Shown here in pieces: positions 894 to 1,832 of a stretch of DNA of 64,000 nucleotides; positions within the stretch are counted from its first letter, which is position 1, and every line of letters begins with the position of its first letter. Position numbers and translations under genes: made by a program. A model generated the notes under the pieces. The model saw nothing but the letters and a program-made list of their open reading frames with translations, did not search any database and was not told the origin of the DNA. This DNA comes from a virus. The stretch is from IMG/VR virus record IMGVR_UViG_3300020470_001313, positions 1 to 64,000 of that record. One strand, written 5' to 3'.

Positions 894-979
894 CTCTGAG
901 GGTAGGAGTTGAACCTACAAGTCCCGCCAGGAACAATAGATAAACGGTCTATCGCGTTTGCCAGTTTCGCCACCTCAGA
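894..979 (-). tRNA. Atypical tRNA, anticodon GTT (Asn), long variable arm, no encoded CCA
   Basis: TCTGAGG/CCTCAGA acceptor stem, D-arm GCG-AAACTGGCAAA-CGC, anticodon stem ATAGA/TCTAT with loop CCGTTTA, variable arm GTTCC-TGGC-GGGAC, T-arm GTAGG-TTCAACT-CCTAC, discriminator G. Confidence 0.85.
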
Positions 980-987
980 TTGAGGCA

Positions 988-1785
988 CTATGAAAGTGCC
1001 GAGATCATGCGAGTGATACCAATTCCTCCTCCAGAACGAGGGAAGAAGTCAAAGGAAAGGAAGTCTTCTAGTTCTTTCTCTACTCTACTTCTTCCAAACA
1101 AATCAATGATGAGTTGTGCATACTGTCCATCAGAGATGGTATAGAATGTGTCTCTCATTTGATCCTTGTCAGTGCTACGTTCAGCACTACCAATGGTTTC
1201 CATACCACCTAGGATCACATCAATCTTTTTACTAGTGCCATCATCATTCCTTGCCATGTTCCAGAAGGGTGATGTCCACTCAGGGAAGTCAGTAATCATA
1301 CCACGTCCAATCTTTTTCTCATGGTCATGGTCTAACTCTTTACAGTTAAACTTGTTAGTCCAGTCATCATAGGTCATGATGTCTTCTTTATCTAATGGTA
1401 GACCTAACCATTCACATAGTTCCCACTCCATGTCTTGAAGTTCTTTGACACCACCCTTCATTTCAAATTCAAACATGGGAAAGATGGTCTCGTGTCTACC
1501 TGGTACAGGGTTTGGTTCTGCTCTGTATGAAGTTGAGACACAGAAAAACCCTTCCGCTGAAGGGTTGGAAAGTAATTCATATTCTAACCACATCTGACCT
1601 GTTTGAGGGAGTGGCCAGATATTATCACCGTAATTATATGTTGCTACTGTCTCTGGGTCTTCACAAGCAGCAAGTATACTCAGTCTATTCTGAGTGTGAA
1701 CCTCTAGGTAATTTTTAGACAAAAAAAATGACCTCAATAGGTCAACAGTCTCACTATATTTACGAGGATCAATCAGACTTGTCAT
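988..1785 (-). CDS. Class IIb aminoacyl-tRNA synthetase-like protein (Asn/Asp/Lys family), catalytic core only
   Basis: Motif 1 LRSFF..YLEVHT, LPQTGQMWLE, motif 2 YRAEPNPVPGRH..FPMFEFE, ETIGSAER, motif 3 PRSGGGIGITRMI; 265 aa with no N-terminal OB anticodon-binding domain. Confidence 0.85.
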   Translation of the reverse strand: MTSLIDPRKYSETVDLLRSFFLSKNYLEVHTQNRLSILAACEDPETVATYNYGDNIWPLPQTGQMWLEYELLSNPSAEGFFCVSTSYRAEPNPVPGRHETIFPMFEFEMKGGVKELQDMEWELCEWLGLPLDKEDIMTYDDWTNKFNCKELDHDHEKKIGRGMITDFPEWTSPFWNMARNDDGTSKKIDVILGGMETIGSAERSTDKDQMRDTFYTISDGQYAQLIIDLFGRSRVEKELEDFLSFDFFPRSGGGIGITRMISALS

Positions 1786-1832
1786 TAATTTTTTGCAAAA
1801 CTAATCTATTTAGCAAGTCCGACTGTCTTTAT

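Follow-up and report, generated by a model that had tools for sequence, protein, structure and literature searches.

A chimeric tRNA with an invariant U37 travels with an AsnRS-like catalytic core in marine phages and may serve as an aminoacyl carrier

The window, the 64-kb stretch of viral DNA analysed here, is part of a T4-like cyanomyovirus record of 150.6 kb, and the isolate nearest to it is Prochlorococcus phage P-SSM7; few viruses on Earth are as abundant as the marine T4-like cyanophages. ARAGORN finds a sole tRNA in the window, on the minus strand with anticodon GTT, and the complete record contains no other. The Rfam tRNA model (RF00005) matches this gene end to end with 46.9 bits (E 7e-07; gathering score 29). 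The acceptor stem comprises 7 bp (UCUGAGG/CCUCAGA) with a U1-A72 pair and discriminator G73, and CCA is absent from the gene. The D-arm, GCGAAACUGGCAAACGC, has a 3-bp stem plus A13.A22 and accommodates an additional A20a, which the Rfam alignment places as an insertion after position 20. The anticodon stem has 5 bp (AUAGA/UCUAU), and the T-arm (GUAGG-UUCAACU-CCUAC) includes the pairs U50-A64 and A51-U63. Every detail listed in a preliminary description of this DNA, namely the stems, the CC-GTT-TA loop, the Leu-like D-arm, the 5-bp variable stem, the U1-A72 pair and the T-stem pairs, is present when the minus strand is read (Table 1).

Table 1 Features of the tRNA-ligase locus in the window
Feature	Position	Strand	Basis
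tRNA, 86 nt, Leu-type class II body with Asn marks U1-A72, G73 and GUU	894..979	-	ARAGORN, RF00005, covariation (n=43 distinct homologues)
Variable region, 17 nt, 5-bp stem GUUCC/GGGAC with UGGC loop	919..935	-	Sequence; pairing across the family
Anticodon loop CCGUUUA: C32 947, C33 946, G34 945, U35 944, U36 943, U37 942, A38 941	941..947	-	Sequence; independent DNA contig identical
Hairpin, 6 bp, GGCACU-UUCAU-AGUGCC, around the stop codon of the ligase, 4 nt upstream of the tRNA	984..1000	-	Folding -9.7 kcal/mol, z -5.4
Class IIb synthetase catalytic core, AsnRS-like, 265 aa, without anticodon-binding domain	988..1785	-	Pfam, PDB profile, AF2, structure comparison
TAAATA box, located about 20 nt upstream from the start codon (ATG) of the ligase; candidate late promoter of T4 type for joint transcription of ligase and tRNA	1807..1812	-	Sequence

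The tRNA combines features of two isotypes. With bacterial tRNA-Asn it shares the anticodon GUU and G73, while the type I body, the 4-5 nt variable loop, U33 and A37 of a canonical tRNA-Asn have no match in it. With bacterial tRNA-Leu it shares the class II body, the long variable arm and the 20a-containing D-arm, but not A73. A family RNA model returned tRNA-Leu as its best hit outside the family in all seven genomes, and the D-arm of one homologue (L083) is identical to that of the same phage's own tRNA-Leu(UAA). These matches bear out the Leu-like body proposed in the preliminary description: the tRNA has a tRNA-Leu-derived class II body with an Asn identity set on top.

The stop codon of the ligase gene precedes U1 of the tRNA by 8 nt on the same strand, and the pair sits upstream of psbA. 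The hairpin that encloses this stop codon could be a processing or coupling signal. Hairpins with another sequence occupy the same place and adopt the same structure in P-SSM7 and P-SSM2 (L001:4085-4113; L002:3970-3998), and the L077-type clade has none. Neither a sigma-70-like promoter nor a terminator-like site was found in the gap that separates the tRNA from the ligase ORF. In an oligo-dT marine RNA library, one contig extends from the 3' end of a relative's enzyme gene into the tRNA, which fits a co-transcript, although DNA carry-over is possible; contigs from marine RNA libraries also cover the enzyme gene, a contig-level result for which DNA carry-over is likewise possible. A strong sigma-70-like promoter (TTGACA, 17-nt spacer, TG-TATGAT) lies at 850-878 on the minus strand, 16 nt past the tRNA 3' end, and presumably drives the downstream psbA.

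Homologous tRNAs occur in P-SSM7, P-SSM2, P-SSM5 and many uncultured marine virus contigs, and 43 distinct ones were aligned for covariation. Standard pairs fill 99.9% of the stem cells, and compensatory double changes are seen at 20 of the 24 pairs, in all five helices. None of 500 shuffles reached the real values of pairing and compensation, and pairing fell to about 45% when the partners were slid. The variable arm retains its stem over lengths of about 13 to 37 nt, with the four outer pairs 99.4% paired and three of the four showing compensatory changes. Besides U1-A72, which is present in 43 of 43 sequences, the invariant positions are G73, U8, G9, G18 G19, the T-loop and G34 U35 U36 U37; the nucleotides of the tertiary core (U8, A14, G18 G19, A21 and the T-loop GUUCRA) are invariant or nearly so. 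The distant members L098, L099 and L122 keep U1-A72, G73 and G34-U37 as well. The 2-71 pair is G-C in 36 sequences and C-G in 7, including that of the window. CCA is encoded after G73 in distant clades (L077-L083, L097-L099, L122 and many of L185-L264), which argues for an acceptor function, and is not encoded in the P-SSM2/P-SSM7-type clade to which the window belongs. The window tRNA is genuine and under strong purifying selection. The covariation check thus upholds the earlier preference for selection over decay, and the Asn-type acceptor end, U1-A72 together with G73, proves to be a fixed property of the family.

The two unusual residues of the anticodon loop behave differently across the family. 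C33 and U37 are almost never found at these positions in elongator tRNAs, and the preliminary description treated them together as one deviant loop. In P-SSM7, P-SSM2 and P-SSM5 the loop reads CUGUUUA, and U33 is the state of most relatives. C33 is found in the window, in its twin L068, in L043/L055/L058, L025, L064/L065 and L095 and at several loci from the tRNA pattern scan, and its carriers are scattered over different branches of the enzyme tree. The tRNA of L068, an IMG/VR contig from another sample, is identical to that of the window, and an independent 2025 marine run yielded a DNA contig over 905-1060 with zero differences; C33 is therefore not a sequencing error. On the sequences compared, position 33 is relaxed to either pyrimidine, and C33 is a tolerated, lineage-specific variant rather than a family trait. 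U37, by contrast, is present in every tRNA ascertained via the enzyme, and this count is unbiased because these tRNAs were found through the enzyme and not through their loop. The deviant loop thus survives as a family property in its U37 part and fails in its C33 part: close relatives carry a canonical residue at position 33 only, and all homologues have U37.

The association of tRNA and ligase was followed in both directions. Among loci found through the ligase, 82 are informative, that is, have sequence downstream, and the tRNA lies directly behind the ligase in 80 of them. The only exceptions are two viral contigs (L081 and L082) that keep the ligase and have another ORF in the tRNA's place, as scored directly behind the ligase. 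Conversely, a search pattern built on the D-loop, GUUU and the T-loop gave 73 informative loci with more than 100 nt upstream; all 73 have the ligase upstream, 15-44 nt away or, in two cases, 187 nt, and a lone tRNA was seen in none. Gene order marks the tRNA as the obligate downstream (3') partner of the AsnRS-like core, which is without an anticodon-binding domain. The tRNA-ligase family was found in every marine virus collection searched, in differing neighbourhoods: in P-SSM7 the pair lies between the gp23-side tRNA cluster and gp3, and in P-SSM2 beside a lipase gene. Marine cassette contigs (L095-L103, L122) also appear in MAGs labelled Poseidoniia, Thaumarchaeota, Flavobacteriaceae, Legionellales and Chloroflexota, and these are probably mis-binned viral contigs.

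Pfam recognizes only tRNA-synt_2 in the 265-aa ORF (E 2.7e-13). A profile of the enzyme family searched against the PDB matches AsnRS best (E 3.6e-14), with archaeal asparagine synthetase A (AS-AR) at 4.6e-07. The AF2 model (pLDDT 96.4) superimposes best on residues 230-528 of human AsnRS (Z 26.4, rmsd 2.2 Å over 242 residues), followed by archaeal-type AspRS (Z 25.3), archaeal asparagine synthetase A (23.8) and GenX (22.9). All 265 residues align within the catalytic domain, and the N-terminal OB-fold anticodon-binding domain is absent. Class II motifs 1-3 and an Asn-type pocket are present, the pocket motif Q-M-W-L-E aligning with Q-L-Y-L-E of AsnRS, and the arginines of motif 2, motif 3 and GSAER are invariant in the family. 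The phage enzymes are highly acidic, with a mean pI of 4.7 and a net charge of about -18.

The family is large, with at least 8000 clusters at 90% identity. Its matches in the ESM Atlas are viral 'tRNA ligase' clusters only, and GenBank labels the pair simply 'tRNA ligase' and 'tRNA-Asn'. A 'tRNA ligase', T4-GC194, is merely listed for P-SSM2 and P-SSM7 (Sullivan et al. 2010). In the literature we found no description of the tRNA-ligase pair, of a U37 tRNA of this kind or of the pyrimidine association set out below. Three distant enzyme representatives (P0258, P0223 and P0179) have no relatives in IMG/VR. The huge uncultured phages LR756501 (L085, 735 kb) and LR756508 (L086, 484 kb) encode the enzyme at 45-48% identity with no adjacent tRNA, and the family RNA model run on both gave ordinary tRNA-Leu as the best hit, only tRNA-Leu or tRNA-Ser among the top hits, and no odd tRNA.

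Relatives of the enzyme are found at 413 places in cellular assemblies, with 55-62% identity. The carriers include Saccharibacteria and other candidate-phyla bacteria, Midichloriaceae and other Rickettsiales, Dependentiae, Saprospiraceae/Chitinophagales and Actinobacillus, among others. At the cellular loci the odd tRNA is absent, and it is present only on marine phage-like contigs binned into MAGs; on five whole cellular genomes the best hits of the family RNA model are ordinary tRNA-Leu/tRNA-Ser only. Within 3 kb of the enzyme, 23 of 80 cellular loci have genes resembling pyrD, pyrE or pyrF (dihydroorotate dehydrogenase, orotate phosphoribosyltransferase and OMP decarboxylase, respectively), some canonical and some divergent. 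Two metagenomic proteins are outright fusions, one of DHO_dh with the ligase (661 aa) and one of the ligase with OMPdecase (588 aa). Examples of the enzyme in a pyr operon or fusion are L116, L123, L128, L146, L100, L106 and L150, and proteins P0123 and P0160. Both pyrB and pyrC are missing from all five cellular genomes tested. Among phage cassette loci, 16 of 160 have pyr-like neighbours, in several lineages; homologues of pyrD, pyrE and pyrF were not found in the source phage genome.

The tRNA-linked enzymes group as a single clade (support 96) in a maximum-likelihood tree, where pyr-linked cellular lineages surround them. Phage and cellular enzymes have 105 of 265 positions in common that are at least 90% conserved in both, and a single substitution is clade-specific, so the chemistry is almost certainly the same in phage and cell. 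The family may be an undescribed supplier of dihydroorotate in bacteria that lack pyrB and pyrC. As another role for the cellular enzyme, we considered a stand-in for a missing AsnRS. It was rejected: in four of the five genomes AsnRS is missing but GatB is present, which makes an AsnRS role for the enzyme unnecessary, and the fifth encodes AsnRS itself. The tested cellular genomes show no consistent pattern in their possession of asparagine synthetase A or B.

We tentatively favour, at rather less than even confidence, the reading that the tRNA is an Asx carrier, probably loaded by the host, that serves an Asn-using enzyme of a pyrimidine shortcut and is not mainly a routine decoder. A non-ribosomal aminoacyl carrier was one of four options offered in the preliminary description and is the one that fits best; the ligase context, which is decisive, had not been used there. 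A ligase without an anticodon-binding domain cannot explain an invariant anticodon, which must then be read by host enzymes or by the ribosome. Since anticodon and discriminator alike are invariant and the enzyme is anticodon-blind, loading by the host is the simplest explanation. The anticodon GUU and G73 constitute the AsnRS identity set in bacteria (PMC9976931), and the U1-A72 pair is a determinant for GatCAB (PMC1635274). The host would thus load the tRNA either with a non-discriminating AspRS followed by GatCAB, first with Asp and then with Asn, or with AsnRS. U37 would remove the site of t6A37, a modification reported to block aspartylation of yeast tRNA-Asn (PMC9976931), and could therefore favour AspRS-type loading.

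Under the same carrier reading, U37 together with a tolerated C33 should weaken decoding on the ribosome. The partner enzyme, with its Asn-type pocket and intact ATP site, would draw on asparagine, either carried by the tRNA or set free from it, and would turn out a pyrimidine precursor of the dihydroorotate type to feed the phage's DNA synthesis. Routine decoding is argued against because U37 is invariant, C33 is tolerated and the tRNA-Asn of Synechococcus phage Syn19 is canonical. A fuller version of the scheme, which we regard as distinctly speculative, is that host non-discriminating AspRS and GatCAB build asparagine on a translation-poor carrier, and that the enzyme, with ATP and a one-carbon unit, would convert it to dihydroorotate, bypassing carbamoyl-phosphate synthetase, PyrB and PyrC; the cellular homologues would perform the same chemistry from ordinary Asn-tRNA or free Asn.

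Several observations weigh against the carrier reading. A supernumerary U20A blocks GatCAB on tRNA-Asp (PMC1635274), and host amidation of a tRNA with A20a and a long variable arm is therefore uncertain. The cellular homologues work without the odd tRNA, and L081 and L082 lack a tRNA behind the ligase, so the enzyme may need no tRNA. The strict adjacency could mean no more than that both genes of a mobile cassette share a late transcript. Of the codons in the long ORFs of the source phage, 6.2% specify Asn (AAT 38 and AAC 24 per thousand), and a decoding role would thus pay too. The reading also gives no reason for U37 rather than C37, which is never seen.

An alternative that we hold to be doubtful is a private charging pair, in which the anticodon-blind core would read U1-A72, G73 and perhaps the body, and would load Asn or Asp onto the tRNA, to be used in translation or otherwise. 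The obligate linkage in both directions is what such a pair would produce. Class IIb cores contact G73 and U1-A72, both of which are fixed here, and the nearest matches of the enzyme, whose ATP and amino-acid residues are intact, are true AsnRS and archaeal-type AspRS. The CCA encoded in some clades and the status of the tRNA as the only one in the genome fit as well. Yet the same enzyme, with its 105 shared conserved positions and no functional shift, is found in cells without the odd tRNA, its fusions to dihydroorotate dehydrogenase and OMP decarboxylase are unexpected for a tRNA-charging enzyme, and L081 and L082 have it with no tRNA directly behind. An enzyme of this type would also leave the invariance of G34-U37 unexplained, and the strong acidity of the phage proteins (mean pI 4.7, net charge about -18) is a further point against it.

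A plain Asn decoder, charged by the host to read AAC/AAU and placed beside the ligase only through the late promoter and the mobility of the cassette, is in our view unlikely. It would account for the complete and conserved Asn identity set, for the frequency of its codons (AAT 38 and AAC 24 per thousand) and for the lack of a separate promoter in the ligase-tRNA gap. The host tRNA-Asn should, however, share the anticodon, leaving no gain in codon usage, and an enzyme-free tRNA would be expected at times but was seen at 0 of 73 loci. Moreover, Syn19, a cyanophage without the cassette, has as its Asn decoder a canonical 72-nt type I tRNA-Asn(GUU) with U33 and A37 (loop CUGUUAA), whereas here U37 is invariant and C33 recurrent, both near-absent in elongator tRNAs.

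Some phage tRNAs are known to withstand host nucleases through substitutions in the loop, and the concentration of deviations in the anticodon loop recalls them. A counter-defence tRNA of this kind, be it a nuclease-escaping replacement of tRNA-Asn with U37, sometimes C33 and a foreign body, or a decoy for the nuclease, is nevertheless improbable: the whole body is unlike tRNA-Asn, so that the changes are not confined to the loop, and the obligate enzyme partner and the pyrimidine association are left unexplained. To our knowledge, no nuclease targeting tRNA-Asn is known in these hosts.

Very improbable is the mis-decoder proposed in the preliminary description, in which SerRS or LeuRS would charge the Leu/Ser-type body and place Ser or Leu at Asn codons. 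The class II body, the long variable arm and G73 might invite it, but bacterial LeuRS needs A73, and the invariant G73 excludes that identity. The 2-71 pair is G-C in some sequences and C-G in others, and C2-G71, the state of the window itself, is an antideterminant for SerRS in E. coli (PMC9976931). The conserved set is that of Asn and not of Ser, and replacement of Asn by Ser throughout the proteome would be harmful. A decaying pseudogene or assembly error, to which the rarity of C33 and of U37 in functional tRNAs might point, is refuted by the covariation with compensatory changes in all five helices (n=43), by the identical L068 tRNA and independent DNA contig from separate samples, and by the presence of the family in every marine virus collection searched, and has a negligible probability.

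Should the tRNA prove to be a dedicated carrier or its enzyme's private substrate, the pair would constitute a compact module of enzyme and tRNA that occurs in nature and is almost orthogonal to the host, of interest to tRNA biology and to genetic-code engineering. If the enzyme family supplies dihydroorotate without pyrB and pyrC, it would represent an undescribed entry into pyrimidines in candidate-phyla bacteria, Rickettsiales-type symbionts and phages; and if the tRNA-fed shortcut is true, pyrimidines would have a new enzymatic route and tRNA a new function outside the ribosome. The combination of an invariant U37 with a tolerated C33 is in addition a natural test of what near-universal positions are for.

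Comparison with known systems places the pair among several partial likenesses. The tRNA-Asn of Syn19 resembles the window tRNA in GUU, U1-A72 and G73, and differs in its type I body, 5-nt variable loop, U33 and A37, in contrast to the Leu-type, 20a-containing D-arm, the 17-nt arm, C33 and U37 of the window tRNA, whose family is tied to the ligase. Syn19 also has a 75-nt tRNA with anticodon CUA, of amber-suppressor type, which ARAGORN labels tRNA-Pyl (L317:1500-1574). Bacterial tRNA-Leu shares the D-arm (3-bp stem, A20a and the A15/U48 type) and the long variable arm, and has A73 where G73, U1-A72 and GUU are found here. Nuclease-evading phage tRNAs are near-copies of a host-type tRNA with changes in the loop only, unlike the present combination of a Leu-type body and Asn-type marks. 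On the enzyme side, AS-AR (PDB 3P8T/3REU), E. coli AsnA and GenX/EpmA are likewise catalytic cores without an anticodon-binding domain (Z 23-24 for AS-AR and about 23 for GenX). The partner enzyme is nearer to genuine AsnRS (Z 26.4), and those paralogues have neither a dedicated tRNA gene nor a fusion to pyrD or pyrF. The proposed scheme recalls tRNA-Sec and other tRNAs of amino-acid conversion, in which a housekeeping synthetase charges an odd tRNA with a long arm and a specialised enzyme then takes it over; tRNA-Sec differs in details of the fold, anticodon and chemistry, and decodes on the ribosome with a dedicated factor. The transamidosome of non-discriminating AspRS and GatCAB offers a comparable logic, in that its tRNA-Asn has U1-A72, the anticodon and G73 of the window tRNA suit non-discriminating AspRS, and the tRNA would act, as proposed here, as a scaffold on which an amino acid is made. 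Its substrates, however, are ordinary tRNA-Asn with neither an extra base in the D-loop nor a long arm, and deliver their product to the ribosome, whereas the product proposed here would go to a metabolic enzyme.
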